64,000 nucleotides of DNA from Burkholderiales bacterium (GCA_016790695.1 JAEUOS010000066.1:23446-87445); one strand, 5' to 3'. Positions 6,020 to 45,360 are shown, counted from the first letter of the stretch. The notes: generated from the sequence alone by a model not told the origin. Translations and numbers: made by a program.

Positions 6020-7239
6020 AGGGCTTCCGGTTGTTGCAGCAGGCTGGTGATCTCGGCCAGGAACAGCGCGCCCTGATGGCCGCTGCTGACGCGGTGGTCG
6101 CCCGACAGGGTCGCCGTCGCGCACGGGGCGGCGACGACCGTGCCGTTGTCGACCCAGGGGCGGTCGGCGATGGCGCCGAACCCGACCAGGGCGACCTGCG
6201 GCGGGTAGATCACCCCGAACACGCTTTCGCTGCCCAGTTCGCCGAGGTTGGTGAGGGTGATGGTCGGGTTGGCCATCTCGGAACTGCGCAGGCTGCCGGC
6301 GCGGCTGCGCCGGACCAGGTCGCTCAGGGCCGTCATGACCTCGGCGGCGCTCTTCCTGTCGGCGTCGAGGATCGCCGGCGCGACCAGGCCGCCGCCGCGC
6401 AGCGCGATCGCCACGCCGACGTGCACCGCGGCGGACGGAGCGAAGGCGCCGTCGCGAAAGAACCCGTTCATCGCCGGATGCCTGGTGCAGGCGAGTGCCA
6501 CGGCGCGCGTCACCAGCGCGGCCATGATCAGGCGCTCGGTGATCGGCCGATGCGCGTTGCGCGCCTCCAGCCAGGCGCTGGCGCGCGCGAGATTGACGGT
6601 CTGGCCGAGGTAGTAGTGCGGAATCTCGCGCTTCGAGCGGCTCATCGCCGCGGCCATCGCGCGACGCATCTCGCCGGCGCGGTCGGCGCCGGTTGCCGGC
6701 CGCGGCGCGCGCGCTGCCGCCTCGACGTCGTCGAGCGTGATCGCGCCGTCCGGGCCGCTGCCGCGCAGTGCCGCCAGGTCGATCCCGAGTTCGCCCGCGC
6801 GTTTGCGTGCGGCCGGCGAGGCGCGGCGACGTGCGCCGTCGGCCGCGCCGCCCGGGCCGGGCGGCGGCGCCGCCGCCGCCGGCGCGGCCGCAGGCGAGGA
6901 CGCAGGTGCGGCGGAAGGCGCAGCACCAGGCGCAGCACCAGGCGCAGCGGCGGGCGCAGCAGCGGCCGGCGCACCCGGCGCACGCGGCGCGCCCGGCGCC
7001 TCGCCGGGCGCGCGCAGGATCGCGAGCACGGTGCCGACCGGCACGGTCTGGCCCGGCGCGACGACGAGCGCGTCGACGATGCCGGCTTCCCAGATCTCGA
7101 TGTCCACCGCGGCCTTGGACGTGTCGACGATGGCGACCACGTCGCCGCGCCGGACGGTGTCGCCGGGCTTGACCTTCCACTCGAGGAGCTTGCCCTCGTC
7201 CATGTCGGCGCCGAGCGACGGCAGCTTGAACTCGATCAT
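6016..7239 (-). CDS. 2-oxoacid dehydrogenase E2 (dihydrolipoamide acyltransferase)
   Basis: Start MIEFKLPSLGADMDEGK at 7239. Lipoyl domain with VVAIVDTSKAAVDIE, Ala/Pro linker, E1/E3-binding domain ASPAARKRAGELGIDLAALRGSGPDG, catalytic SGDHRVSSG. Confidence 0.9.
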   Translation of the reverse strand: MIEFKLPSLGADMDEGKLLEWKVKPGDTVRRGDVVAIVDTSKAAVDIEIWEAGIVDALVVAPGQTVPVGTVLAILRAPGEAPGAPRAPGAPAAAAPAAAPGAAPGAAPSAAPASSPAAAPAAAAPPPGPGGAADGARRRASPAARKRAGELGIDLAALRGSGPDGAITLDDVEAAARAPRPATGADRAGEMRRAMAAAMSRSKREIPHYYLGQTVNLARASAWLEARNAHRPITERLIMAALVTRAVALACTRHPAMNGFFRDGAFAPSAAVHVGVAIALRGGGLVAPAILDADRKSAAEVMTALSDLVRRSRAGSLRSSEMANPTITLTNLGELGSESVFGVIYPPQVALVGFGAIADRPWVDNGTVVAAPCATATLSGDHRVSSGHQGALFLAEITSLLQQPEAL

Positions 7240-31946: not shown

Positions 31947-32082
31947 GACGATGTTCCTGCGCGCAGAATTGTGCGGTGACGATTGTGCGCGCGCGCGGCC
32001 CGCGCGAACGCGCGAATAGACCCTGCGCGGGCGCCGATTTCCGCCGCCGCGCGGTGCGGCCGCAGAGGCGGCCGCACCCGGG

Positions 32083-32091
32083 TGCTACAAT
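32083..32091 (+). promoter_or_regulatory. Extended -10 promoter element TGcTACAAT upstream of alaS
   Basis: TG at 32083-32084 and TACAAT at 32086-32091, 33 nt upstream of the alaS ATG. No good -35, which is tolerated by extended -10 promoters. Confidence 0.4.
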
Positions 32092-32093
32092 CC

Positions 32094-32105
32094 AATCAAT
32101 TGATT
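32094..32105. promoter_or_regulatory. Perfect 12-bp palindrome AATCAATTGATT at the predicted alaS transcription start
   Basis: Read directly. It lies immediately downstream of the -10 element, in an AT-rich patch. Confidence 0.4.
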
Positions 32106-32123
32106 TTCAAAAGAAAAAGTTTC

Positions 32124-34742
32124 ATGAACGCCGCCGAAATCCGCGAGAAGTTCCTGCAATTTTTCGAATCCAAGGGCCACACCCGGGTGGCGTCCTCGCC
32201 GCTGGTGCCGGGCAACGACCCGACGCTGCTGTTCACCAACTCGGGCATGGTGCAGTTCAAGGACGTCTTCCTCGGGCGCGACGCGCGCGCCTACACGCGC
32301 GCGACCACCTCGCAGCGCAGCGTCCGCGCCGGCGGCAAGCACAACGACCTCGAGAACGTCGGCTACACCGCGCGCCACCACACGTTCTTCGAGATGCTGG
32401 GCAACTTCAGCTTCGGCGACTATTTCAAGCGCGACGCGATCCGCTATGCCTGGGAGCTCCTGACCGGCGTCTACGGCCTGCCCAAGGACCGGCTCTGGAT
32501 CACCGTCTACCACGAGGACGACGAGGCCTACGGCATCTGGGCCGACGAGATCGGGGTGCCGAAGGAGCGCATCGTGCGCATCGGCGACAACAAGGGCGCG
32601 AAGTACGCCTCCGACAACTTCTGGCAGATGGCCGACACCGGGCCCTGCGGCCCCTGCTCGGAGATCTTCTTCGACCACGGGCCCGAGGTGGCCGGCGGCC
32701 CGCCCGGCTCGCCGGACGCCGACGGCGACCGCTACATCGAGATCTGGAACCTGGTGTTCATGCAGTTCGACCGCCAGGCCGACGGCTCGATGCCGCGCCT
32801 GCCCAAGCCGTGCGTGGACACCGGCATGGGCCTGGAGCGCATCGCCGCGGTGCTGCAGCACGTGCACAGCAACTACGAGATCGACCTGTTCCAGGACCTG
32901 ATCCGCGCGGCGGCCCGCGAGACCGGCTGCGACGACCTGGCCCTGCCGTCGCTCAAGGTGATCGCGGACCACATCCGTGCCTGCGCGTTCCTCATCGTCG
33001 ACGGCGTCATCCCCTCCAACGACGGCCGCGGCTACGTCCTGCGGCGCATCATCCGGCGCGCGCTGCGCCATGGCCACAAGCTCGGCCAGACCCGGCCGTT
33101 CTTCCACAAGCTCGTCGGCGACCTGGTCAAGGTGATGGGCGCGGCCTATCCGGAACTCGCCCGCGGCGCCGCGCGCGTCGGCGAGACCCTGCTGGCCGAG
33201 GAGGAACGCTTCGCCGAGACGCTCGAGCACGGCATGAAGATCCTCGAGAGCGCGCTGGCCCGCGAGGGCAGCATGGTCGACGGCGAGACCGTGTTCACGC
33301 TCTACGACACCTACGGGTTCCCGGTCGACCTGACCGCGGACGTCGCCCGCGAGCGCGGCAAGGCGATCGACATCGCCGGCTACGAGGCGGCGATGGAGGA
33401 GCAGCGCAAGCTCGCGCGCGCCTCCTCGCGCTTCAAGATGAATGCCGGCGTGACCTATGCGGGCGGCAAGACCGAATTCCGGGGCTACGAGACCCTGGCG
33501 GTGCCGGCCTGCCGGGTGGTGGCGCTGTACATCGACGGCTCGCCGGTCGGCGAGCTCGGCAGCGGCGACGCCGGCATCGTCGTGCTCGACCGCACGCCGT
33601 TCTACGCCGAGTCCGGCGGCCAGGTCGGCGACAAGGGCGAGCTCATCGCGGCCGGCGGCACCTTCGTGGTCGAGGACACGCAGAAGATCCAGGCCGACGT
33701 GTTCGGCCACCACGGGCGCCTGTCCGCGGGCGAGCTCAGGGTCGGTGACGCGGTGGAGGCGCGCGTCGACGGCGCGCGCCGCGCCGCGATCGCGCGCAAT
33801 CATTCCGTCACCCACCTGATGCACAAGGCGCTGCGCGAGGTGCTCGGCGATCACGTCCAGCAGCGCGGCTCGCTGGTCGACGACCAGCGCACGCGCTTCG
33901 ACTTCGTGCAGATGAAGCCCCTGACCGACGAGGAGATCCGCGCGGTCGAGGACCGCGTCTTCGCCGAGATCCTCGCCAACACCGCGACCCGTGCGCGCGT
34001 CATGCCGATCGAGGAGGCGAAGAAGAGCGGCGCGATGATGCTGTTCGGCGAGAAATACGGCGACGAAGTGCGGGTGCAGGACATCGGCAGCTCGCGCGAG
34101 CTGTGCGGCGGCACCCACGTCGAGCGCACCGGCGACATCGGCGTGTTCAAGATCCTCTCCGAAGGCGGGGTGGCCGCCGGCATCCGGCGCGTCGAGGCGA
34201 CCACCGGCGCCGGCGCCTACGCGGTGATCAACGCCCAGCTGGCGGAGTACCAGGGGGCCGCGCGCGCGCTGCGGGTGGCGCCGGGCGCCGGGGAACTCGA
34301 CGGCGCGCTGAAGAAGCTCCAGGAGGAGAAGCGCGCGCTCGAGAAGGAGCTGGCGCGCCTGAAGGGCAAGCTTGCCTCCAGCCAGGGTGACGATCTCGCC
34401 GACCGCGCAGTCGAGGTCAAGGGGCTCCGGGTGCTGGCCGCGTCGCTCGAGGGCGCCGACGTCAAGACGTTGCGCGAGACGCTCGACAAGCTCAAGGACA
34501 AGCTGAAGAGCGCGGCGATCGTGCTGGCCAGCGCCGCGGACGGCAAGGTGGCGCTGATCGCGGGAGTCACCGCCGACGCGACCGCGAAGGTGAAGGCCGG
34601 CGAGCTCGTCAATTTCGTCGCCGCGCAGGTCGGCGGCAAGGGCGGCGGCCGGCCCGACATGGCGCAGGCCGGCGGCACCGATCCGGACAAGCTGCCGGCG
34701 GCGCTGGCCGGGGTCAAGGCGTGGGTCGAGGCGCGGCTGTAG
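32124..34742 (+). CDS. alaS: Alanine--tRNA ligase
   Basis: ATG 32124 within ORF 31983..34742. [46 protein letters not shown]; editing-domain HxxxH ([10 protein letters not shown]); about 872 aa. Confidence 0.95.
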
Positions 34743-35116: not shown

Positions 35117-35878
35117 ATGAATCCCGTCCGGTTTCGAGCCGCCGCCGCGCTCGTGTGCGCGCTGGCCGTGTCCCCGCTGTCTGCTGCGGACCTCAGGGTG
35201 CTCTCCGCCGGCGCCGCCAAGGAAGCGGTGCTGCCGCTGGCCCAGGCGTTCGCGAACGCGTCCGGCCACAACGTCGACATCGACTTCGGCACCATGGGCC
35301 TGATCCAGGACAAGCTCCGGCAGGGGGAGAGGGCCGATGTGCTGGTCCTGGCGGCCGAAGTTGCCGACACCCTGGCCCGGGCCGGCACCATCGTGCCGGG
35401 ATCGGTCAGGCCGCTGGCCAAGGTCGGCATCGGCGTGGCCGTCGGCGCGACGGCGCGCGCGCCCGACATCTCGACGGCGGCGGCGTTCCGCCAGGCGCTC
35501 GTCGATGCCCGGTCGATCGTCATGATCGATCCCGCGCGCGGCACCAGCGGCAAGCACCTGGTCGAGGTGTACCAGCGCCTCGGCCTGACCGAACTGCTCA
35601 AACCCAAGATGCGCTACGGCGCCGGCGGCTACATCGTCGAGCCGGTCGGCCGCGGCGAGGTCGAACTGGGCCTGCACCAGATCAGCGAGATCCTGCCGGT
35701 CAAGGGCGTCCGGCTGGTCGGCCCGCTGCCCGAGGAACTGCAGAAGTGGACCGTCTACGTCGGCGCCATCACCCCGTCGACGGCCTCGGCCCAGGCGGCG
35801 CGCGAACTGATCGCCTACCTGTCGGGCTTCCAGTCGAAGGCGACCTACCTGTCCAAGGGCTTCCTGCTCGTCGAGTGA
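35117..35878 (+). CDS. Periplasmic substrate-binding protein, ModA-like (type 2 PBP)
   Basis: 253 aa. Signal peptide AAAALVCALAVSPLSAADL, then LRVLSAGAAKEA...; overall ModA/molybdate-binding-like pattern. Ligand unknown. Confidence 0.7.
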   Translation: MNPVRFRAAAALVCALAVSPLSAADLRVLSAGAAKEAVLPLAQAFANASGHNVDIDFGTMGLIQDKLRQGERADVLVLAAEVADTLARAGTIVPGSVRPLAKVGIGVAVGATARAPDISTAAAFRQALVDARSIVMIDPARGTSGKHLVEVYQRLGLTELLKPKMRYGAGGYIVEPVGRGEVELGLHQISEILPVKGVRLVGPLPEELQKWTVYVGAITPSTASAQAARELIAYLSGFQSKATYLSKGFLLVE

Positions 35879-35978: not shown

Positions 35979-36785
35979 GTGTGTGCGCGCATCGCCTTCG
36001 AGGACGGCAGCAATGCGTCCACCGTCGTGACGCTGCGCTGCGCGTTCGCCATGCTGGCGATCGGCGCGGCGATCCGCGTGAGCGCGACCCCGGATGCGAT
36101 GACCGGGCGCGATCGCCGGCTGATCCTCGTCCTCGGCCTGTTCTTCGCGGTCAACGTGTACGCGTTCTACAAGGCCGTGGAGCTGCTGCGCGTGCCGCTG
36201 GCGATCCTCATCTTCTATGTCTACCCGTTGCTGACGGTGCTGTTCTCGGCGGCCGCCGGGCTGGAGCGGCTGCGCGGCGCGGTCATCGCCTGCTGCCTCG
36301 TCTCGCTCGCGGGACTCGCGCTCGCCACGGGCGCCGCTCCGGAAGCCGTCGACGCGCTCGGCGTCGCGCTCGTCCTGTGCTCGGCAGCCGTGATCGCCGC
36401 GGTGCTGGTCGTGACCACGCGCCGGGTCGCGCATGTCGATGCGCGGCGCCGCACCTTCTGGATGATGGTCTCGACCACGGCGGTGCTCGGCACGGGCCTG
36501 GTCGCCAGCGGCACCTTCACGCCGCCGGAAAGCGCGCGCGGGCTCGCCGCCCTGGCCGGGGTGTGCGTGTTCTACAGCATCGGCCTGGTCGCGCTGTTCA
36601 CCTCCGCCACGCGCATCGGCCCGGCCCGCACCGCGGTGATCATGAATCTCGAGCCGGTCGCGGCGATCCTCCTGTCGACCCTGCTGCTCGGCCAGGGCCT
36701 CACCGCCGCGCAACTGGGCGGCGGCGCGCTGGCCTTGGCCGGCGTGCTCGGTGCGCAGCTGGCGCAGCAGGCGCGGTCCCGTTGA
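35979..36785 (+). CDS. DMT superfamily (EamA-like) transporter
   Basis: Multi-TM hydrophobic protein with two EamA-like halves. The first canonical start (GTG 35979) falls inside what looks like TM1, so the true start is probably upstream (see findings). Confidence 0.75.
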   Translation: MCARIAFEDGSNASTVVTLRCAFAMLAIGAAIRVSATPDAMTGRDRRLILVLGLFFAVNVYAFYKAVELLRVPLAILIFYVYPLLTVLFSAAAGLERLRGAVIACCLVSLAGLALATGAAPEAVDALGVALVLCSAAVIAAVLVVTTRRVAHVDARRRTFWMMVSTTAVLGTGLVASGTFTPPESARGLAALAGVCVFYSIGLVALFTSATRIGPARTAVIMNLEPVAAILLSTLLLGQGLTAAQLGGGALALAGVLGAQLAQQARSR

Positions 36786-36988
36786 TCGCGCCCGGTTCCC
36801 CCCGGAAAGCGTGACGCAGTCGAGGTCGTTGACACTGCTTTGCATTTAGGGGGTTCCAGCGCCGGGCGCGCGTCGCGACAATGCGGTCCATGCGCTGGCC
36901 CCCGCATCCCGCGACACCGTCACGGTGGGCAAGGCGGACTGCCGAGGGCTCCTTCAAGCAGCCAGTGACGACTTCAACCGGAGAACAC

Positions 36989-37756
36989 ATGATTTCCATC
37001 GCTCGCATCGGCGTCCGCACATTGGGCCTGGCGGCCCTGACCATGGCCCTGTCGGCACAGGCGGCGCCCTACTTCTGGACCGACTGGACCGGAGCCACGT
37101 CGAACACCAACGGCACGAACTTCGTCGCCAACGGAACGATCACGACGAACGCGTCGACCATCAACGTGACCTACAGCAATGCGCAGGGCGTCTCGTTCAT
37201 CCAGACCAACGGCGGCACCGACTACTGGGCCAACGGATTCTTCGGCAGCGCCCGCAATGCCGCGACCTCGCCCTACACCAGCACGCAGGTCGACAACATT
37301 CCGACCGGCACGGACATCATCGCGCTGCGGCAACCGGGCAGCCAGACGCTGCAGTTTTCCCAGACCGTCGCCAATCCGGTGTTTTCGTTCGTGAGTCTCA
37401 ATGGGAACGGCTACGCGTTCCTGGACCAGGATTTCGAGATTCTGAGCCAGACCGGCAACGGCAACGATTGCGGCTTCTGGGGTTGCGGCACTGCGACCAA
37501 GGTCGAGGTCGACCTCGGCAACGGCCACAAGGAATACCGCCTCAATGGCATCTCCGGCGAACCGCACGGCACCATCCGATTTCTCGGCGCCTTCGACACC
37601 CTGGTGTGGAGCAGCCAGTCGTTCGAGGACTGGAACGGATTCACCGTCGGCGTGCAGGGTACCGCGGTCGAGGTGTTCCAGACGCCCGAGCCGGGGTCGC
37701 TGGCACTGATGGGCGTGGCGATGCTGGGCATCGTGCTGCGGCGCCGCCGCGCCTGA
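36989..37756 (+). CDS. PEP-CTERM sorting domain-containing protein
   Basis: ATG 36989 with GGAGA upstream. Signal peptide LGLAALTMALSAQA. C-terminal PEP-CTERM anchor TPEPGSLALMGVAMLGIVLRRRRA. Asn/Thr/Gly-rich body. Confidence 0.85.
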   Translation: MISIARIGVRTLGLAALTMALSAQAAPYFWTDWTGATSNTNGTNFVANGTITTNASTINVTYSNAQGVSFIQTNGGTDYWANGFFGSARNAATSPYTSTQVDNIPTGTDIIALRQPGSQTLQFSQTVANPVFSFVSLNGNGYAFLDQDFEILSQTGNGNDCGFWGCGTATKVEVDLGNGHKEYRLNGISGEPHGTIRFLGAFDTLVWSSQSFEDWNGFTVGVQGTAVEVFQTPEPGSLALMGVAMLGIVLRRRRA

Positions 37757-37856: not shown

Positions 37857-38519
37857 ATGGCGCACAATGTGCGCATGACCGCCAAACTGCGACCCGCCGC
37901 CGGCGCGCCGCCCGCTGCGGGCGCCGGCCTCGCCGGCCGCGGCCAGCGGCGCACCTACCGCAAGGGCACCCTGCTGATCCAGGAGGGCGATCCGGGCGAG
38001 ACGGTGTTCTACATCCTCTCCGGTCGCGTGAAGGTGTTCTCGGTCGATGACCAGGGGCACGAGTTCACCTACATCGTCCTCGGACCGGGCGACTATTTCG
38101 GCGAGATGTCGCTCGACGGCGGCGCCCGCTCGGCCTCGGTGATCACCGCGGAGGCCTGCGAATGCGCGGTGCTCAGCCGTGCCGATGTGCGCGCGCACAT
38201 GGCGGCCGATCCCGACTTCGCCTTCGAGCTGCTGACCACGGTGATCCGCCGCGCACGCGAAGCGACGCGCGTGGCGCGCGGCCTCGCGCTCGGCGGTGTC
38301 TACAGCCGGCTCGCGGCGTTCCTGGACAATGCCGCCGCCCCAGCACAGGACGGCGAGCGGTTGATCGCCGAGGTGCTCACGCAGCGCGAGATCGCCAGCC
38401 GCATCGGCGCCTCGCGCGAGATGGTGAGCCGCATCATGACCGACCTGGAGGCCGGCGGCTACGTTGCGCGGCGCGCGCGGCGCCTGGTGCTTCTGAGGAA
38501 GCTGCCGGCGCAGTGGTGA
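37857..38519 (+). CDS. Crp/Fnr family transcriptional regulator (cNMP-binding domain plus HTH)
   Basis: 220 aa. cNMP-binding beta-roll LIQEGDPGETVFYILSGRVKV...GDYFGEMSL; HTH TQREIASRIGASREMVSRIMTDL. No N-terminal Cys cluster. An alternative start is at 37875. Confidence 0.85.
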   Translation: MAHNVRMTAKLRPAAGAPPAAGAGLAGRGQRRTYRKGTLLIQEGDPGETVFYILSGRVKVFSVDDQGHEFTYIVLGPGDYFGEMSLDGGARSASVITAEACECAVLSRADVRAHMAADPDFAFELLTTVIRRAREATRVARGLALGGVYSRLAAFLDNAAAPAQDGERLIAEVLTQREIASRIGASREMVSRIMTDLEAGGYVARRARRLVLLRKLPAQW

Positions 38520-38523
38520 GGCG

Positions 38524-40557
38524 TCACGGGTGGCGAGGCACGCGGGGCTTGCGGGTAACGCCGGCCACCGCGAGCGGCGTGCGCTTCTGCCTGAACAGCG
38601 CTTCGCGGATTGTTTCCAGGGAGTCGCCGTCGGCGAGCCGATCCTCGATCCACGTCGCAAGCTCGTCGTCGGGTGCAGGCACGCCGGCCAAGCGCGCGGC
38701 GATCCAGCGCGTGACCTGCGGCGCCGCCGCGCTGGTGCCGCGCACGCCGATGATGCTGCCCGAGTAGGTGCCCGTCGACAACGCATACCCGAGCGCGGCC
38801 GATTCCTCGGCCGGACCCATGGCGTTGGGGCGGCGCATGCGGCCGGCCGCCTCCGGCTGGCCGTCGGCCGAGTACGCGGCTTCGCGCGCGTCACGGCGGC
38901 GATAGGCGCCAGCGACCACCGTGTGCCTGCCGGTGGCCAGCGCGTTGAGCGTGCCGCTGCGGCGCACGAGGGCCGCACCGGCCGGATCGTCGACCTCGTT
39001 GACGCGGCCGGCATCGTCGACGCGGGACGCCTCGTAACCGGGATCGTCGAAGTAGGACTGCCGGCCCCGGACGATCTGGCCATAGGGCGTGTCGTCACGC
39101 TGGATCCAGGCATTGACCCGCACGGCGCGGCTGCCGGCGACGCGGACTCGCCAGATGCCGCTCGACGCGCGCGGCGCCGCGCCGGCGGCGGTCGGCGCGA
39201 CGGCGATGAGGAAGCCGACGCGCCGGTCGCCGTCGGCGCGGCGTGCGACGATCGTGCAGACGGCGTTGCGCGCGATCATGCGCCGGTCGGGCGACGCGGC
39301 GGCGGAGAGCCGCGCGCCGTCCGGCGCCACGACGTCGACGGCGAGCCCGCGCAGCGCGCCGGCGTCGGCCGCATCGGCCCAGATCTCCATGAAGCTCGGC
39401 GTGATGTCGTCGGGCAGCAGGCGCCAGCGCAGCTCGCACGCGCGCCGATGCGCATCGAGGCCGAAGGCGGCGTGGCCGCGCGTCTGGGCGTTGTTGCCTG
39501 CCGCCACGACGATCTCCAGCCGGCCGCCGCGAAGCCGGATGAGCTCGTCCATCGCCTTCTCGATCAGCGACGACCCGTCGTGCGGGCCGGCGCTGCGGCC
39601 GAAGCTCAGGTTGACCACCACGGGCACGGCCGGGTCGATGGCATCGGCGCGCGCGACCACGTAGCGCAAGGCATCGAGGAGGTGAAAGCCGAGCGAGGCG
39701 CCGGAACTGTCGGCGATGGTCGTCTCCGGCAACTGCACGCACACCAGCGCCGGCGCCATCTTCGCGATCGCCTCCTTGGGCCATCCGACGGCCAGGCCGG
39801 TGACTGCCGCGCCGTGGGTGCCGCGGCGCAGGTTGCGCCGATAGCCGATGCGGCGATAGGCTGCGGCCTCATCGGCGAGCCCGGCAACCGCCGGAATGCC
39901 GCCGCAGGCCGCGGCGATCCTGGCGCGATCGAGTTCCGCCCCGTAGGGCAGCCCGGGTCCGGGGCTGGCTGCGGGGTTCTGGTCCCACAGGTGCCAGACC
40001 AGCGGCGCGCCGTCGGCGTCGCGCAGGCGGGCGTTGGCGAACGGGATGCCGTCGTCGACGATGCCGATCACCACCTTCGGCCGGATGGCGCGCCGGGCGG
40101 TGCGGCCAGGCACCGGCGCGGCGTTCGACGGCAGGTGCGCGGGGTCGATTGCCGGCAGCGGCCGAGACGACGGCGTGCGGATCGCGAGGCCGAGCTCGAC
40201 GCGCGCCACCGCGGCGACGTCCGGGTCCGCGGCCGCCAGCGCGCGGAAGAAGGCGGGACCGGCCGTTGCGGTCGCGTAGCGGGCCTCAAGGAGGTCGGCG
40301 CGCGCGTCGCGGGTGTAGGCCGGGGCGACCGCGAGCAGGCGGGCGAGGCCCGGCAACCCGCCGCGCGCGAGGTCCTTCAGCGCCGCGTCCTGCAACTCCA
40401 CCAGCACCGGCGCGCGTGCCGGCAGGCCGCCCAACTGCGCGAAACCGTCCAGGTCCGCCCAGATGAACGCGGGATCGATGCGCGCGCGCACGTCCGCCGG
40501 GCAGGCGCGCCAGTCGATGCCGGTCCAGCGGCCGAGCGTGCCGGCCGCGGCGTTCAT
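38524..40557 (-). CDS. S8 family (subtilisin-like) serine peptidase, no signal peptide
   Basis: 677 aa from MNAAAGTLGRW. Triad motifs IGIVDDG (D168), RGTHGAA (H248), AAGN (N355), GTSAAAPQV (S609). ATG 40557 overlaps the upstream stop (ATGA). Confidence 0.85.
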   Translation of the reverse strand: MNAAAGTLGRWTGIDWRACPADVRARIDPAFIWADLDGFAQLGGLPARAPVLVELQDAALKDLARGGLPGLARLLAVAPAYTRDARADLLEARYATATAGPAFFRALAAADPDVAAVARVELGLAIRTPSSRPLPAIDPAHLPSNAAPVPGRTARRAIRPKVVIGIVDDGIPFANARLRDADGAPLVWHLWDQNPAASPGPGLPYGAELDRARIAAACGGIPAVAGLADEAAAYRRIGYRRNLRRGTHGAAVTGLAVGWPKEAIAKMAPALVCVQLPETTIADSSGASLGFHLLDALRYVVARADAIDPAVPVVVNLSFGRSAGPHDGSSLIEKAMDELIRLRGGRLEIVVAAGNNAQTRGHAAFGLDAHRRACELRWRLLPDDITPSFMEIWADAADAGALRGLAVDVVAPDGARLSAAASPDRRMIARNAVCTIVARRADGDRRVGFLIAVAPTAAGAAPRASSGIWRVRVAGSRAVRVNAWIQRDDTPYGQIVRGRQSYFDDPGYEASRVDDAGRVNEVDDPAGAALVRRSGTLNALATGRHTVVAGAYRRRDAREAAYSADGQPEAAGRMRRPNAMGPAEESAALGYALSTGTYSGSIIGVRGTSAAAPQVTRWIAARLAGVPAPDDELATWIEDRLADGDSLETIREALFRQKRTPLAVAGVTRKPRVPRHP

Positions 40558-41717
40558 CCGCGGCCCCACTCGCGGTCGGCCGCCTCGCGCAGCCAGCGCA
40601 GCGCGGGCGCGACGGGCGGGGTGACGGCATTCGCGGGCCCCGCGACCTGCCACGGCGGGGCGTCGACCTGCGCCGGGAAGTCCTCGCCGTCCGGATAGGC
40701 ACGCGCGTCGAAGCGTCGCGGCGCGAGCCCGTTGCGGTAGCCGCAGCGGCACAGCACGTAGTCGGCCAGCGCGTTGCCGAGCACCTCGCCGGCCGACGAG
40801 TCGATCGGGAAGTGCACGCCGGCGATGGTGCGGTTGATCGCGATGCGCGTCGCCTGGCGCTGCAGCTGCTCGTGCAGCGCGTCGCCGTGCGGATGCAGCC
40901 GCGCGAGGATCCGGGCGATCATGAACGCCTCGGTCGCATGGCCGCTCGGCAGCGTGCCGTGCCCCGGGGTGGAGATGATCGGCTGGATCCTCGAGGAGAA
41001 CTCGACCGGGCGCGGCGCGGCCAGCGCGTGCTTGAAGCGCATCTCGACGGTGAAGGCCAGGCGCAGCGCCGCTTCCAGCAGCTCGATGGTCTTGCCGTGG
41101 CGTCCGGGCTGGAGGCCGCAGACCGATCCCCAGAACGCGAACTGGGGGCCGAGCTGCGCGAGGATTTCGCCGGAACGCTCCTCGCGCAGGTCCGCATAGT
41201 CGTTGACCAGGGCGAGCTGGCGCTTCAGTTGCGCGCTGGACGGGCCGATCATCTGCACCAGGGTGGCGTGGCGGGTCGTCCCGGTGACGAAGCGATCGTG
41301 GCGCGCGGCCCCGGCACCGCGCGCAATCTGGCAGGCGAGGCTGGCGGCGGCGCGGCCCGCAATCCGGCCGGCGTCGAAGGTCAGGCCGGCGCGCAGTTCG
41401 AAATCGATGACGGCGGCGCGCACGCCCGGGTCCCACTTGGCCAGCCGCGCGGGATCGGCCGGCTGCCACGGGTCGAGGTCGGGTTTGCCGTCCCAGGCGC
41501 CGAGGATGCCGTCGCGGTGATAGACCAGCGCCCCGGCGAAGAGCGGACTGAACGCCCCGGCGGCGCCCGCCGCCCCCGCTGCCCCCGCGGCGCCGGCGGC
41601 TCCCGCGGCGCCGGCCGCCCCCGCCGCGCCGGCCGCCCCGGCCGCCCCGGCGGCGCCTGCCGCCCCTGCCGCGCCCGCCAGCAGTGCCGCGCCTGCGGCT
41701 CCCGCATATGTGCTCAT
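40554..41717 (-). CDS. Soluble PAP2 / vanadium-haloperoxidase-fold protein with N-terminal (Gly-Ala-Ala)13 tract
   Basis: 387 aa. GAGGAGA 7 nt before ATG 41717. PAP2 signature is complete: K229-X6-RP237, PSGH(257-260), R296-X5-H302-X3-D306. No obvious TM helix or signal peptide. Confidence 0.8.
   Translation of the reverse strand: MSTYAGAAGAALLAGAAGAAGAAGAAGAAGAAGAAGAAGAAGAAGAAGAAGAAGAFSPLFAGALVYHRDGILGAWDGKPDLDPWQPADPARLAKWDPGVRAAVIDFELRAGLTFDAGRIAGRAAASLACQIARGAGAARHDRFVTGTTRHATLVQMIGPSSAQLKRQLALVNDYADLREERSGEILAQLGPQFAFWGSVCGLQPGRHGKTIELLEAALRLAFTVEMRFKHALAAPRPVEFSSRIQPIISTPGHGTLPSGHATEAFMIARILARLHPHGDALHEQLQRQATRIAINRTIAGVHFPIDSSAGEVLGNALADYVLCRCGYRNGLAPRRFDARAYPDGEDFPAQVDAPPWQVAGPANAVTPPVAPALRWLREAADREWGRG
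41553..41675 (-). repeat. Coding tract for 13 consecutive Gly-Ala-Ala triplets (aa 15-55 of the PAP2-fold protein)
   Basis: Read codon by codon. Gly is encoded by GGG/GGC/GGA and Ala by GCG/GCC/GCA in irregular order, so the periodicity is exact at protein level but imperfect at DNA level. Confidence 0.9.
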
Positions 41718-41755
41718 GGTTCGATCTCCTCGTCTGGTTGTCGGGTTGCCGACGC

Positions 41756-43552
41756 CTAGGTGTGCTCGGGCAGTCCGGCGCGGCGCAGCGCGTCGCTCCA
41801 GATGCGCCCGGTCTCGTAGCGGGCGGTGGGATGGTTGGCGCGATAGTCGGCGACGCTGGCTCGCGGTTCGCGGCGGCGCAACTCCTCGACGGTGCGGCGG
41901 GCGTCCGGCAGGTCGCCGTTGAGCACCTGCGCGATCGCCATTGCGCGCAGGGTGGAATGGTGCGTGCGGTTGGCCTTGAGCGAACGCCTGGCGAGCTCGA
42001 TCGCGCGCGGGTAGCGTCCGGCGGACAGCGCCGCGGTGGCGGCGAGCGAGTCGTAGAAGTAGCGCAGCGGGTCGAGCGGCGAGAGCGCGATCGCCGTCTC
42101 GGTGTGCTCGACCGCGAGCTCACCCCTGCCCTGGAACGCGTACAGGGTGCCCTTGAGCAGCAGCGCCAGCGAGTCGTTGGGGTTGACCTCGAGGGCACGG
42201 CTGTAGCTTTCCTCGGCCTCGTCGAGGCGGCGCAGCAGGTTGGTGTGCACCATGCCGTCGATTGCGAGCGCCATCGAGCATTCGCTGTCGAACTCGAGCG
42301 CGCGGCGGCTGTAGGCCAGCGCCTGGCGCGCGTCCTCGTCGCGGTCGGTCGACCAGCCCTGCACCGACCGCAGCACGTGCCATTTCGCCAGCCACGCATA
42401 GGGCAGGGCCTGGCGCGGCGCGCGCTCGATCAGCGTCTCGAGGCGCTCGCGCGAGCGGTTGAAGCTGTCGGCGCCGAGACGGTGCATGAGGCCGATCGCG
42501 CTGATCAGCAGCGCGTAGCTCTCGAGCGTCGGCAGCGGCTGGGCCAGCGAGCGCTCCAGTTCGCGGTCGACGATCCGTGCCGCCACCCTGCCGGGGATGT
42601 GGGTGGCGAGCGGATTGTCGGCGCGGAACAGCGCGGCGATGTCGAGCGGCAGGCGCTCGGTCCACAGCACCGACGCCGAGCGGGTTTCGGTGAGTTCGAG
42701 GAACAGCAGCAGCCTTCCGCCGGACTCGTAATAGTTGCCCGAGAGCACGTACTGGGCACGCAGCACGCTGCCGAGGGCTGCCGGCGCTTCCGCGCGCCCG
42801 CGCAGCGCCGTCGTCGACAGGCGCGAGATGACGTTCAACTCCGGCATGCGCGACAGCGCGCGGATGATCTCGTCGGCGGCCGCCTCGCCGAACACGCCGT
42901 GCGCCGGGTCGGGAGCGTGCGACACCGGGGGGATCACCGCGATGCTCGGCCGCAGTTCGGCCGGCGCGCGTGCCGGCACGGCCTGTCCGGCCGGCGCACC
43001 CGGCGGCCCGACGCGGTAGACGCGCAGCGGCTCGTCGTACTGCTTGGGTGCGTAGTGCTCGCCGAGGTCCTCGATGTCGGCATCGAGCGCCTCGACGAGG
43101 CCCTCGCGCGCCTCCGGGGTCAGCACGGTCTCGCCTGGCGCGGCGGTGTCGGCCAGGCGTGCGGTGAGGTTGACTGCCTGGCCGTAGATGTCGGCGGCGT
43201 CCTCGGCGAATTCGCCGCTGTGCACGCCGATGCGCAGGCGCATGGCGCGCTGCGGCGGCCGGCCGGCATTGTCGGATTCCGCGAGCGCGTGCACCGCATG
43301 GGCAGCGGCCACCGCCGCCGGCGCGCCGGCGAACACCGCCAGGATGCGGTCGCCCGTATGGTTCACCACGCGTCCGCCATGCCGGGCCACCGGCCCGCTG
43401 CGGACCGCCTCGCACAGCGCCAGCCAGCGTTCGATCGTCTCGCGTTCATTCTCTTTCATCAGGCGCACGGATTCGGCCAGGTCGGCCAGGAAAATGACTC
43501 CCGCCGCCGGCGATTCGTGCATGCCGACAGAATCCAGTTCGTGCGAACGCAT
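41756..43552 (-). CDS. Class III adenylate/guanylate cyclase with C-terminal TPR region
   Basis: Cyclase blocks VIFLADLAESV, HTGDRILAVF, RIGVHSGE, YGQAVNLTARL. The C-terminal half has TPR-like repeats. Start chosen at ATG 43552 (GGGAGGGGG upstream); the ORF extends to GTG 43585. Confidence 0.8.
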   Translation of the reverse strand: MRSHELDSVGMHESPAAGVIFLADLAESVRLMKENERETIERWLALCEAVRSGPVARHGGRVVNHTGDRILAVFAGAPAAVAAAHAVHALAESDNAGRPPQRAMRLRIGVHSGEFAEDAADIYGQAVNLTARLADTAAPGETVLTPEAREGLVEALDADIEDLGEHYAPKQYDEPLRVYRVGPPGAPAGQAVPARAPAELRPSIAVIPPVSHAPDPAHGVFGEAAADEIIRALSRMPELNVISRLSTTALRGRAEAPAALGSVLRAQYVLSGNYYESGGRLLLFLELTETRSASVLWTERLPLDIAALFRADNPLATHIPGRVAARIVDRELERSLAQPLPTLESYALLISAIGLMHRLGADSFNRSRERLETLIERAPRQALPYAWLAKWHVLRSVQGWSTDRDEDARQALAYSRRALEFDSECSMALAIDGMVHTNLLRRLDEAEESYSRALEVNPNDSLALLLKGTLYAFQGRGELAVEHTETAIALSPLDPLRYFYDSLAATAALSAGRYPRAIELARRSLKANRTHHSTLRAMAIAQVLNGDLPDARRTVEELRRREPRASVADYRANHPTARYETGRIWSDALRRAGLPEHT

Positions 43553-43651
43553 GCTAGCGAGAGCCCCCTCCCTTCGCTTCGCCACTATTATGGACTTGTG
43601 TTGCGCTGAAGCGGGCCGCCCGGCGGCATCGCCTGCGGACGGGGCGGGAAA

Positions 43652-43666
43652 TGTGAATACGTCACA
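43652..43666. promoter_or_regulatory. Inverted repeat TGTGA-ATACG-TCACA in the cyclase/luxR divergent region
   Basis: Read directly. The arms match CRP half-sites, but the spacer is 5 nt instead of the canonical 6. Confidence 0.35.
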
Positions 43667-43754: not shown

Positions 43755-44522
43755 ATGGTGATGCAGACGGAATCGGGTTCGGCCGGGTGGCGCGACGCCG
43801 CGCCGGAGTTCAGGGGCACCGGATCGGCGGCGTCGCTGCCGCTGGCGGCGCTGTTCAACGAGCTGGCGTTCGGCGTGGCGATCATCGATCGCGACGGCGG
43901 CGTGGTGCACGTCTCGCGCGCCGCGCGGCTGATGATGCAGGCAGGCCGCGGCCTGCGCCTGGCCGAAGGCCGGGTCATCGCGGAGGACGCGGCGTCCGGC
44001 GCGGCGCTGGCGCGCGGCGTGACCGGTGCCATTGAGGGCCGGCGCAGCTACCTCGCGTTCGGCCAGGGGGACGGGCGCATGGACGTGGCGGTGGTGCCGC
44101 TGGCCGGCGCCCAGTTCGCCGAGCCGCTCGCCGCACTGATCTTCGAACGTGCGTCCGGCAGCAACGGCCTGGCGCTGTACTTCTTCGCGCAGGCCTACCG
44201 CCTGACGCGCACCGAGCATGCGGTGCTGGGCGAACTGGGCGAGGGACTGAGCGTCGTGGAGGCCGCCCGCGCGCTGGACTCGAGCGTGCACACGCTGCGC
44301 ACGCACGTGCGCAACATCCTTGCCAAGACCGGGGTGCCCAACCTGCGCGGGCTGGTGCGCCGCATCGGCATGCTGCCGCCGGTCGGGGCGCGGTTCGCGG
44401 TCGCGCATGCGCGGGCGGAGGGACTCGTGCACCGGCCGGCGGCATCGACGGCGGCGGTGCCGGCTCCGCGTTCGGACGCCTCCGCGGCCGCGCGCGAGGA
44501 CCGCCGCGCCGTGGCGGCCTGA
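43755..44522 (+). CDS. LuxR-family HTH regulator with N-terminal PAS-like region (no receiver domain)
   Basis: ATG 43755 within ORF 43188..44522. C-terminal LuxR HTH LTRTEHAVLGELGEGLSVVEAARALDSSVHTLRTHVRNILAKTG. The N-terminal region FGVAIIDRDGGVVHVSRAARLMM is PAS-like. Confidence 0.8.
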   Translation: MVMQTESGSAGWRDAAPEFRGTGSAASLPLAALFNELAFGVAIIDRDGGVVHVSRAARLMMQAGRGLRLAEGRVIAEDAASGAALARGVTGAIEGRRSYLAFGQGDGRMDVAVVPLAGAQFAEPLAALIFERASGSNGLALYFFAQAYRLTRTEHAVLGELGEGLSVVEAARALDSSVHTLRTHVRNILAKTGVPNLRGLVRRIGMLPPVGARFAVAHARAEGLVHRPAASTAAVPAPRSDASAAAREDRRAVAA

Positions 44523-44526
44523 CGCC

Positions 44527-45360
44527 ATGGCGCCGACCCTGGCGGGCGCGTTGCCCGCGCGACCGACTGCGCCGTCCGCATGCGCGTTCGATGCGATCCG
44601 GTTCGGACTGTCCGGCGCGGCGGCACCCGCCCGCGGCGACGGCCTGCCGGTGGCGCGTGCGATCCGGCCGGACAGCGATCGCCAGCGGGACGCCGGTCCG
44701 GAAGCGGCGTCCACGCTGTTCGTCGGCATGGTCGCGCACGAACTGCGCGCGCAGCTGCGCACCGCCGATGCGTTGCGCGGCCGAATCGCGGAGGTCTCGG
44801 GCGACGCGGAGGCTGCCGCGGGCCTGCTGGCGCGGCTGGCCGCAAGCCATCGCCGCATGGAGGCAACGCTTGCCGATCTGCTGGCCCTGGCGCGCGCCGA
44901 CGCTGCCCCGCTCGCCCGCGCGCCCGTCGACCTTACCGCGCTGGCATGGAGCATCGTCGCCGACCTCGAATCCGCCGACCCCGACGCCCGCGTGGACTGG
45001 GTCATCGAGCCCGCCATGTCGGCCTCCGGGGCTCCGGGCCTGCTGCGCCTGCTGCTCGCGAACCTGATCGGCAATGCCTTCAAGTACACGCGCCGTGCAG
45101 GTGTGCCGTGCGTCCAGTTCTTCTGCACTGCCGGTCACGGCGGGCGGAGGGAGTATCACGTGTGCGACAACGGGATCGGCTTCGAGCCTGCCGAGGCATC
45201 CGGGCTGTTCGCGCCGTTTCACCGGCTTGCCGGCGCCGCGGAGTACGCAGGCACCGGACTGGGGCTCGCGATGGTCAAGCGCATCGCGTTGCGTCATGGC
45301 GGCGGGGTGCGGGCGGCGGGCGCGCCGGGATGCGGGGCGCGGCTCACGTTCTGGATCTAG
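44527..45360 (+). CDS. Minimal soluble histidine kinase (HisKA plus HATPase_c only)
   Basis: 277 aa. H-box FVGMVAHELRAQL, N-box LLANLIGNAFKY, G-boxes DNGIGF and GTGLGLAMV. No TM or recognisable sensor domain. 4 nt after the luxR-type stop. Confidence 0.8.
   Translation: MAPTLAGALPARPTAPSACAFDAIRFGLSGAAAPARGDGLPVARAIRPDSDRQRDAGPEAASTLFVGMVAHELRAQLRTADALRGRIAEVSGDAEAAAGLLARLAASHRRMEATLADLLALARADAAPLARAPVDLTALAWSIVADLESADPDARVDWVIEPAMSASGAPGLLRLLLANLIGNAFKYTRRAGVPCVQFFCTAGHGGRREYHVCDNGIGFEPAEASGLFAPFHRLAGAAEYAGTGLGLAMVKRIALRHGGGVRAAGAPGCGARLTFWI

Follow-up and report, generated by a model that had tools for sequence, protein, structure and literature searches.

What do three tightly packed genes for a nucleotide cyclase with a tetratricopeptide repeat (TPR) region, a PAP2-fold enzyme and an S8-family subtilase do, and do they belong together at all? 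This question is raised by a stretch of 64,000 nucleotides from a Burkholderiales bacterium (GCA_016790695.1 JAEUOS010000066.1:23446-87445; hereafter the window), in which the genes follow one another on the minus strand in the order sensor (cyclase-TPR), PAP2, S8. An initial annotation of the window had taken them for a candidate system of no described pathway, the layout suggesting an enzyme pair controlled by a second messenger. We find that the trio recurs as a real, widespread and apparently undescribed bacterial cassette, no description of which was found in the literature searched, and that the PAP2 protein begins with a tail of identical short units whose identity covaries with the TPR domain of the sensor. 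These features tentatively point to a signalling system in which the sensor would read the tail.

The scan took one genome per species. At least 574 candidate stretches in these species-representative genomes encode a PAP2 relative, and the best 80 were analysed; minus one duplicate and with two loci added from look-ups, they gave 81 distinct loci (labelled L001 onwards). Searches with the window proteins (tblastn) found S8 downstream of PAP2 in 80 of these, the one exception lying at a contig end, and a sensor orthologue immediately upstream of PAP2 in 74, the exceptions being five contig ends and two loci with a winged helix-turn-helix (wHTH)-TPR gene. Order and strand are the same wherever the contig allows, in Alphaproteobacteria, Betaproteobacteria and one Myxococcota metagenome-assembled genome (MAG), and the flanks are unrelated between loci from different genera. 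Because the same gene order is thus kept in 81 loci, in different genera and between different flanks, the array lies far beyond chance. The initial annotation had named the recurrence of PAP2-S8 pairs in other genomes as its test; the pair is present in every related locus, so refutation on this ground fails decisively. The PAP2 homologues, at most 56% identical to the window protein (in L003, an uncultured Burkholderiales MAG and the closest relative) and at most 48% among database proteins, come mainly from Burkholderiales and Nitrobacteraceae, with Steroidobacteraceae and Usitatibacter MAGs also present, and the cassette was found on 35 plasmid records. When all open reading frames (ORFs) of the loci were clustered against each other, the only genes widely shared beyond the trio encode a Crp-type regulator (37 loci) and a LuxR-type regulator (27 loci), which co-occur mostly in Comamonadaceae, within Burkholderiales.

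The feature that we rate as key had been given as an incidental detail, a (Gly-Ala-Ala)13 tract in the PAP2 protein. The tract is real, in fact consists of 14 perfect Ala-Gly-Ala/Gly-Ala-Ala units, and is the local form of a family-wide tail. Orthologue N-termini open with a brief leader (as a rule MS..., in many cases with PE or E at its end) and continue with 4-18 (median 9) identical copies of a unit of 3-5 residues, then a conserved junction, ..SP.L.ADALI., and the PAP2 body. Arrays were scorable in 78 of the 81 PAP2 ORFs; among the other three, L036 (at a contig end) and L078 (of a less regular GGW type) show repeats by eye and L022 shows none. The repeats are in frame with PAP2 in all 80 ORFs that show them, and five plasmid types looked at separately all carry the array. 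Runs of N interrupt the tracts of L040 and L050, leaving these arrays partly readable, and a 'WVA' unit in L040 was discarded as a frame artefact.

The unit is species-specific and differs even within one genus, with more than 30 units seen. Those of three residues include GAA, GGA, GGV, GGI, GGL, GGF, GGY, GVS, GAV, GLT and GIN, as well as GYS, GYA, GAF, GTM, GIS, GFE, GVE, GEN, GDS and DAN; those of four residues, about a quarter of the total, include GGGM, GGLS, GGMS, GGVS, GGAS, GGFS, GGFT, GGYS, GGGL, GGGT and GAGI. Remoter, plasmid-borne members carry NSF, SGH, GSF and GGI, and some units (DAN, NSF) are devoid of Gly. The NSF unit is common to Phaeobacter and Parasedimentitalea (L083-L087) at five copies in three Phaeobacter inhibens strains, six in P. 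gallaeciensis and seven in Parasedimentitalea marina, and this variation in copy number indicates that array length is polymorphic while unit and TPR stay fixed. One Burkholderiales lineage (L078 and its homologues P0046 and P0057) has a longer, less regular, Trp-containing tail (GGWSSTGGWGGWSS...).

The DNA beneath these identical peptides is far from uniform. In the window, Tandem Repeats Finder (TRF) reports a period of 9 with matches of only 77%, the 14 peptide units being written in 10 different 9-mers. Across the 78 arrays, which hold 729 identical-peptide units, 1287 nucleotide differences separate neighbouring units, and 1237 of these fall at third codon positions. For example, L042 encodes Ser as both AGC and TCA in one array, and the 14 LGG units of L056 have 14 different DNA sequences; a few arrays (e.g. 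L037 and L064) are almost uniform at the DNA level and appear to be young. Since synonymous sites are near saturation and no amino-acid change occurs within a run, the unit peptide must be under purifying selection. DNA slippage and G-quadruplex formation were rejected as causes of the tract, the DNA units being heterogeneous and some not G-rich, as were a collagen-like reading of a Pfam 'Collagen' match and a polyglycine motif, given the existence of four-residue and Gly-free units.

The enzyme behind the tail had been described as a soluble protein of PAP2/haloperoxidase fold, of which the PAP2 fold with all three motifs stands and the haloperoxidase assignment is not favoured. The Pfam family PAP2 (PF01569) matches at 29.1 bits against a cutoff of 27.2; the motifs K-x6-RP, PSGH and SR-x5-H-x3-D are all present, and across 20 homologues K175, R182, P203, G205, H206, R242, H248 and D252 are invariant and P183 and S204 nearly so (numbering from residue 55). 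In an AlphaFold2 model (predicted local distance difference test, pLDDT, 83), a disordered start is followed by a small beta-sheet subdomain and then by the helical catalytic domain. Acid phosphatases top both kinds of search, which speaks against a haloperoxidase: the Pseudomonas aeruginosa enzyme 7f17 comes first in the profile search (E 1e-14), with bromoperoxidase 1qi9 a weaker second (E 9e-8), and in Foldseek 7f17 scores E 7e-6 and vanadium haloperoxidases E 0.19 or worse. Some homologues bear only a faint PF22778 mark. No N-terminal hydrophobic signal segment was seen by eye in either PAP2 or S8.

The S8 protein, which matches Peptidase_S8 at 36.9 bits (Pfam), retains a triad of D168, H248 and S609 that is invariant in 31 homologues. 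Its AlphaFold2 model (pLDDT 80.5) places a disordered linker (residues 128-154) after an N-terminal alpha/beta domain and a beta insertion further on (see the table). Foldseek puts the model closest to clostridial CspB, CspA and CspC (E 9e-24 to 4e-17), with CspB 4i0w at the top (E 9e-24, template modelling score 0.68) and the next family at about 1e-5; the macrocyclase PatG is among the weak matches (E 1.3e-3). Sequence searches agree, their best matches again being CspB, CspA and CspC, at only about 14-20% identity. CspB activates the cortex hydrolase zymogen SleC through cleavage at a specific site; it carries a jellyroll insertion, and its prodomain stays bound (PMC3567191). No SleC-like gene lies in the conserved neighbourhood and the hosts are Proteobacteria, so a role in germination does not apply. 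By analogy with CspB, S8 most likely cuts PAP2 at one defined site, for which the conserved junction after the tail is the obvious candidate.

The third protein, the sensor, consists of an N-terminal class III cyclase domain, a middle domain and a TPR domain. Its match to Guanylate_cyc (PF00211) is marginal (22.4 bits, cutoff 21.9) and many TPR families hit the same protein (Pfam); the cyclase domain also matches the Protein Data Bank sequences 3mr7 (E 1e-15) and Ma1120 (E 5e-11). The window protein has both metal-binding Asp residues, the Asp of the specificity pair (DIYG) and the transition-state Asn and Arg, and its motifs FLADLAES, HTGDRI and AVNLTARL are conserved in most of 68 aligned orthologous sequences. 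The substrate-specifying Lys is Asn in the window (VVNHTGD, codons 43370-43390), Lys in most orthologues (LVKSLGD) and Arg in Paraburkholderia and Caballeronia, such that most orthologues hold the canonical Lys...Asp pair of adenylate cyclases. In three betaproteobacterial loci with GGF units (L025, L032 and L047) the cyclase motifs look degenerate, with no clear metal-binding Asp or GD motif; some sensors may thus be pseudo-cyclases in a cassette that is kept all the same.

The cyclase can even be absent. In L074 and L082, the product of the gene beside repeat-tailed PAP2 and S8 aligns over its C-terminal 280 residues with the middle-TPR part of the window sensor (E 5e-11), and its N-terminus resembles a winged helix. 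Similarly, plasmids of Phaeobacter inhibens, P. gallaeciensis and Parasedimentitalea encode, in the sensor position and the same orientation, a 687-residue protein with a Trans_reg_C domain (52.8 bits) and TPRs, and plasmids of Paracoccus, Terrarubrum and Bosea likewise have a wHTH-TPR arrangement, the middle-TPR regions of the latter two being plainly homologous to that of the window. The hosts of wHTH fusions to the middle-TPR part include Bradyrhizobium sp. Ghvi and a Hyphomicrobiaceae MAG. The cyclase is therefore replaceable by a winged-helix DNA-binding domain, and the core of the cassette is the middle-TPR sensor, the repeat-tailed PAP2 and S8. The logic of an enzyme pair under second-messenger control is hence probably reversed: cyclic AMP (cAMP) would be one of two routes of output from the sensor, the other being direct DNA binding. 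The Paracoccus member (L088, on plasmid pPZ01 of Paracoccus zhejiangensis) has an S8 gene of 846 residues on the opposite strand, a divergent wHTH-TPR gene and an SGH array with two imperfect units (SGQ and SGL); tssH, of type VI secretion, and a gene for a calcium-binding protein lie nearby.

What links sensor and tail is the pattern of their variation. The three proteins were cut into nine segments, and all locus pairs were compared at matched divergence of reference segments. TPR identity is higher by 0.25-0.30 in pairs with the same unit than in pairs with different units, a difference not reached in any of 2000 label permutations. A weaker effect of this kind is seen in the middle domain, and none in the PAP2 core or in any S8 segment in the matched pairs; even the N-terminal region of PAP2 differs by only +0.013, against +0.248 for the TPR. 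For example, L023 and L049 (units GLT and GYS) are 95% identical in the cyclase domain and 59% in the TPR. The TPRs of L041 and L053 (GGI and GGL) are 76% identical at 93% in the reference segments, and those of L053 and L079, both with GGL, 85% identical at 81%. Overall, the closest relative of L058 is L059, from which it differs in unit (GGGL and GGYS; TPR 58%, reference segments 87%), yet its closest TPR is that of L070, which has the same GGGL unit (80%). Furthermore, between Polaromonas loci with three- and four-residue units the TPRs are 36-46% identical and the remainder 68-79%, so that TPR class tracks the period of the unit against the relationships of all other domains. Two further comparisons carry little information: L074 and L082, in which the TPR gene does not adjoin the repeat, form a single pair with similar acidic units, and per-column mutual information between unit class and alignment columns was swamped by high-entropy columns.

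The divergent block is contiguous: it begins around sensor residue 300-450, takes in the rest of that protein and the repeat, and in some pairs also covers the first ~100 PAP2 residues. Divergence is highest at the junction. The synonymous sites of the block, too, have reached saturation in pairs that differ in unit (a proportion of 0.73-0.90, compared with 0.26-0.57 for the cyclase catalytic domain), and the block therefore represents old alleles moved by recombination and not a recent burst of substitutions. Where the unit is shared, it is the TPR that is most constrained of the whole operon, with a ratio of non-synonymous to synonymous substitution (dN/dS) of 0.01-0.13. No unit contains Lys or Arg and the TPR domain is net positive (mean +2.5), the three loci with acidic units having the most basic TPR domains (+5 to +9), a weak hint of co-adaptation. 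The pattern is that of a pherotype-type specificity cassette, a pattern which by itself cannot tell co-adaptation from physical linkage; the asymmetry between TPR and PAP2 N-terminus, the match of TPR class to unit period and the weak charge trend are in favour of co-adaptation as predicted here.

The model that we prefer, with a confidence that falls a little short of even, is a tethered-ligand signalling cassette in which the TPR reads the tail, S8 processes it and the output of the sensor is transcriptional; binding, cleavage, the direction of the signal and its biological role are what we infer. The TPR domain would recognise the cognate repeat tail, on the intact PAP2 protein or after release, and the Csp-like protease would sever the tail from the PAP2 body as CspB does with pro-SleC, altering both phosphatase activity and the supply of ligand to the TPR. 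The sensor would then turn the state of the tail into transcription: the window version would make cAMP, read by the adjacent Crp-type factor, which would act at the TGTGA-N5-TCACA site that precedes both the luxR-type gene and the operon, and in other lineages the sensor would bind DNA directly through its winged-helix domain. A polymorphic specificity block would comprise the tail with its two neighbours, the TPR end of the sensor gene and the first ~100 PAP2 residues, and would exist as old, divergent alleles exchanged by recombination, in the manner of pherotype cassettes in Gram-positive peptide signalling.

A bolder extension, which we hold to be possible though doubtful, sees in the cassette an intracellular, polymorphic recognition system of a new class. 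Here, the TPR solenoid would read the periodic tail at one unit per register, a Csp-like convertase would gate the process, many orthogonal alleles would be kept by diversifying or balancing selection, and the output would pass through cAMP and Crp or through a DNA-binding domain. If true, this could serve self/non-self or kin-type discrimination or insulate co-resident chromosomal and plasmid cassettes from one another, and would constitute a natural counterpart of engineered repeat-protein/repeat-peptide pairs.

Several points weigh against the tethered-ligand model. The covariation could reflect linkage, as the TPR-coding end abuts the repeat in a contiguous block that may have been imported without any contact between TPR and tail. 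Conservative unit changes occur without TPR divergence, such as GGV/GGI (L011, L014), GGVS/GGLS/GGAS (Hydrogenophaga) and GGA/GAA (L001, L017). Moreover, a nearest-neighbour test gives the TPR a small advantage (29 of 50, against 21-27 of 50 for other domains), and same-unit pairs stem mostly from slow-evolving clades (Bradyrhizobium, Paraburkholderia), a confounding effect of lineage. S8 does not covary with the unit and therefore probably does not cut within units. The window cyclase, in which the specificity Lys is missing, may be of weak or altered activity or have changed its nucleotide preference. Finally, the catalytic activity of PAP2 has no necessary role in the model, and the substrate of this phosphatase is left unexplained by every model considered here.

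Among the alternatives, the one that survives best, though we judge it unlikely, is a zymogen pair with an attached regulator: S8 would remove a low-complexity pro-region and so activate PAP2, the TPR protein would sense some other ligand and either regulate the pair or share its regulation, and the covariation would be hitch-hiking. The CspB-like fold of S8 and the position of the tail at the extreme N-terminus, before the conserved junction, fit this reading well; a contiguous, synonymous-saturated block is what an imported block would look like, and the conservative unit changes without TPR change are likewise expected. Yet a merely removable pro-region needs no 4-18 perfect units amid saturated synonymous sites. 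Hitch-hiking also accounts poorly for a TPR that ranks highest among the segments in conservation if the unit is shared and lowest if it is not, given that the N-terminal region of PAP2, although just as closely linked, lacks this contrast overall, nor does it account for a TPR class that follows the unit period against the relationships of all other domains.

An improbable reading makes the tail a multi-copy precursor, akin to a ribosomally synthesized and post-translationally modified peptide or a pheromone polyprotein, from which the protease, perhaps with the help of other peptidases, would free many copies of a short peptide. This peptide would serve as a signal between cells or as a bioactive compound and be sensed by the TPR after re-uptake, as in Rap-Phr and other RRNPP systems or in the Kex2 processing of alpha-factor. 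Identical tandem units under peptide-level selection are suggestive of such a precursor, and species-specific units with a co-varying TPR receptor just upstream reproduce the rap-phr layout. An S8 protease is at hand in the operon, with PatG among its weak fold matches; Phr peptides are processed by subtilisin, Epr and Vpr, and the S8 family includes PatA/PatG and Kex2, which act on multi-core precursors. However, PAP2 and S8 lack a signal peptide, and the neighbourhood holds no conserved transporter or peptide permease. Units such as GGA and GAA would be too simple for a specific extracellular signal, there is no spacer or recognition sequence between units, S8 does not covary with them, and the fusion to a conserved, catalytically intact enzyme stays unexplained.

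The tethered-ligand model is complemented on its output side by two regulators, whose association with the array, already proposed in the initial annotation, holds in about 36 (Crp-type) and 27 (LuxR-type) of the 81 loci, in Burkholderiales. The Crp-type protein of the window matches cNMP_binding (PF00027, 82.6 bits) and HTH_Crp_2 (PF13545, 44.5 bits) in Pfam and has a visible GE...RSAS ligand-contact motif; its best NCBIfam match is the CRP equivalog, at 93 bits against a 266-bit cutoff, and it is not the E. coli-type CRP itself. Orthologues at 40-75% identity adjoin the cassette in the said 36 or so loci (tblastn), placed convergently after S8, upstream of the sensor or on the same strand, and because the gene is found in these several arrangements, its linkage to the cassette evidently survives rearrangement. 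Of the 27 loci with a LuxR-type homologue (26-39% identity), 26 have it next to the Crp gene, and in L024 it is found downstream of S8.

A perfect Crp-type palindrome lies in an A+T-rich patch of the window, with the sensor operon on one side and the luxR-type gene on the other. With a spacing of N5 it was missed by a scan for TGTGA-N6-TCACA and was seen by eye, after which both spacings were tested across loci. Sites of the form TGTGA-N5/6-TCACA with at most one mismatch precede the (approximate) luxR-type start in 21 of 27 loci, against a background of 17 in 2000 random windows, at distances that range from 54 to 159 bp and mostly fall at about 85-120 bp. The sensor gene is preceded by such a site less often (5 of 65, mainly in Bradyrhizobium). 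Control of the enzyme genes by the second messenger, as first supposed, is thus not what the sites point to, the conserved one preceding the luxR-type gene in most loci and not the enzyme genes. A predicted chain from cyclase through cAMP and the Crp-type factor to the luxR-type gene is well supported by this arrangement as the regulatory wiring. L004, L005, L008 and L013 (Bradyrhizobium) and L012 lack an adjacent Crp gene and carry, about 25-200 bp ahead of the sensor gene, a site like TGTGA-N6-TCACA (0-1 mismatch), which hints that a Crp-family factor encoded elsewhere may control the operon there.

The same output branch bears on a further, highly improbable explanation, an anti-phage or conflict module in which the cyclase would signal infection, PAP2 and S8 would be effectors and the polymorphism would record an arms race. 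Weak PADLOC matches point this way (PycC at 29 bits for the cyclase, 'subtilase' at 24 bits for S8 and the cyclic nucleotide-binding region of PycTIR at 48.9 bits for the Crp-type protein), as do the strongly polymorphic block of old alleles and the frequent carriage on plasmids. Against this, neither PAP2 nor S8 has a cyclic nucleotide-binding sensor domain (Pfam), the sole reader of cyclic nucleotides being a transcription factor with a conserved operator upstream of another regulator, and the cyclase is exchangeable for a DNA-binding domain. The flanking genes, moreover, are housekeeping or metabolic and do not form defence islands, and a search of 50,697 phage records found no homologue. 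Chance adjacency of three unrelated housekeeping genes, to which the weak, generic family matches of each protein might allude, is refuted by the common order and strand across two proteobacterial classes and one Myxococcota MAG and by the translational coupling of the genes in the window, leaving it a practically negligible probability.

At the level of the window itself, the G+C content of 72% crowds the list of ORFs with spurious frames, and genuine genes were picked by codon-position G+C. One such frame, a 1291-residue ORF on the minus strand (38524-42399), is a high-GC artefact in which the S8 frame stays open upstream through the PAP2 gene; the S8 start at ATG 40557 is backed by orthologue alignments. 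On rechecking, the coordinates, genes and motifs first claimed were all borne out: the 38-nt gap between sensor and PAP2, which contains GAGGAGA 7 nt before the PAP2 ATG at 41717, the 4-nt ATGA overlap of PAP2 and S8, and the convergent stop codons of Crp and S8, 4 nt apart. An Rfam scan of 36-46 kb gave no match, and a scan for consensus promoters and terminators gave no signal exceeding that of shuffled sequences. The features are collected in the table.

Table. Features of the cassette and its regulators, with coordinates counted from the first nucleotide of the window.
Feature	Coordinates	Strand	Basis or remark
Crp/Fnr-type gene	37857-38519	plus	convergent with S8
S8 subtilase gene	38524-40557	minus	677 residues
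S8 beta-rich insertion	about 39100-39474	minus	AlphaFold2 model residues 362-486, within catalytic domain
S8 N-terminal prodomain-like region	about 40183-40557	minus	AlphaFold2 model residues 1-125
PAP2 gene	40554-41717	minus	387 residues
PAP2 body (small beta-sheet subdomain, then class A acid-phosphatase-like catalytic domain)	40554-41552	minus	Pfam, fold
Leader MSTYAGAAGAALL and repeat tail, N-terminus of PAP2	41553-41717	minus	repeats at 41553-41678
Sensor (cyclase-TPR) gene	41756-43552	minus	alternative GTG start at 43585
TPR domain of sensor	about 41759-42517	minus	Pfam TPR families; part of the hypervariable, putative specificity block
Middle domain of sensor	about 42518-42955	minus	
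Class III cyclase domain	about 42998-43510	minus	Pfam Guanylate_cyc and Protein Data Bank matches
Crp-type palindrome TGTGAATACGTCACA	43652-43666	unstranded	perfect; A+T-rich patch
LuxR-type gene (GerE helix-turn-helix, N-terminal domain of unknown type)	43755-44522	plus	Pfam GerE; divergent from sensor operon
Histidine kinase (H-box, HATPase_c, no sensor domain)	about 44320-45360	plus	start probably after 44522

Both the divergent LuxR-type gene and the minimal histidine kinase first reported beside the array are present; the kinase, whose ORF shares ~200 nt with the luxR-type gene in a different frame, does not accompany the cassette elsewhere and is a local neighbour only, as are the remaining genes around it. 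L003 alone shares the Crp-side flank of the window, the two having in common an EamA transporter (35979-36785), a solute-binding protein (35117-35878) and a 919-residue gene (31983-34742). The first two precede a gene directly upstream of Crp for a 291-residue protein with a C-terminal PEP-CTERM motif (36881-37756, plus strand), which has no match in any locus. A second cluster of tandem repeats, of 9-36 bp, lies at 6871-6999 (TRF).

The tethered-ligand model, if true, would give cAMP and transcriptional signalling in bacteria a new kind of input: a TPR domain that reads a genetically encoded, perfectly periodic tail under the control of a zymogen-type protease. Identical units, scrambled codons and the covariation of unit and receptor together make a rare, clean signature of selection on a repeat, and the pattern suggests that specificity types exist in Gram-negative bacteria, where peptide-TPR signalling is, to our knowledge, essentially unknown. 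It would also provide the first functional context for a family annotated only as 'PAP2 family protein', 'S8 family peptidase' and 'adenylate cyclase' or 'winged-helix protein'. The presence of the cassette in culturable bacteria (Phaeobacter inhibens, Paraburkholderia phymatum, Bradyrhizobium) makes the model directly testable.

Of the systems already known, the RRNPP family of Firmicutes (Rap-Phr, NprR-NprX, PlcR-PapR, PrgX and AimR-AimP) comes close in layout and putative behaviour. There, a cytoplasmic TPR receptor is paired with an encoded short peptide, the coding sequence of which lies immediately downstream of the receptor gene, and the two co-diversify into specificity types, as TPR and unit may do here unless their covariation reflects linkage; S8 proteases act in Phr maturation, and some Phr precursors hold more than one copy of the peptide. 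In contrast, the 'peptide' of the present cassette consists of 4-18 tandem units on the N-terminus of an enzyme and not of a small secreted pro-peptide ORF, signal peptides (by inspection) and an Opp-type import partner are lacking, the hosts are Proteobacteria, and the output is a class III cyclase or OmpR-type winged helix instead of an XRE-type helix-turn-helix or Rap phosphatase. The pherotype cassettes agrBDCA and comQXPA share another trait, a hypervariable block that spans the signal sequence and the adjoining segment of the sensor between conserved flanks, with old alleles shuffled by recombination among related lineages; their protein families are unrelated, however, and their signals are secreted and modified, of which the cassette gives no sign.

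Other likenesses are confined to single parts. The Csp-SleC cascade resembles the cassette in its protease only, that is, in S8 fold and sequence, the N-terminal prodomain-like region and the beta-rich insertion, whereas the present hosts do not form spores and the partner is a repeat-tailed PAP2 phosphatase, not a peptidoglycan hydrolase. Class A acid phosphatases (7f17, PhoN, PhoC and the E. blattae enzyme) have the same fold and full set of catalytic motifs, but are periplasmic proteins of about 210-250 residues with signal peptides; the window PAP2 is predicted to be cytoplasmic and has an additional N-terminal beta-sheet subdomain and the repeat tail. In Sinorhizobium meliloti, class III cyclases with a sensory domain (CyaD1, CyaD2 and CyaK) feed the nearby-encoded Crp-family regulator Clr, which acts at a palindromic site upstream of its target, the cyclases being membrane CHASE2 receptors of a plant signal. 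The parallel covers the output branch of cyclase, Crp-type regulator and palindrome, a branch that is dispensable in the cassette, whose sensor is soluble, has a middle-TPR body, is tied to PAP2 and S8, and can exchange its cyclase.

The cassette does not fit anti-phage systems of the Pycsar and CBASS type, in which a cyclase is paired with a nucleotide-sensing effector: PADLOC matches of the core genes are generic and reach at most 30 bits, the higher score of the Crp-type protein being due to its cyclic nucleotide-binding domain. Curated NCBIfam and PADLOC libraries gave generic, sub-threshold matches only for sensor, PAP2 and S8, and NCBIfam, PADLOC and Pfam contain no curated family specific to the cassette. 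With parts from known superfamilies in a combination that matches no described system, we rate the cassette as categorically new, its proposed function being drawn from comparative genomics alone.

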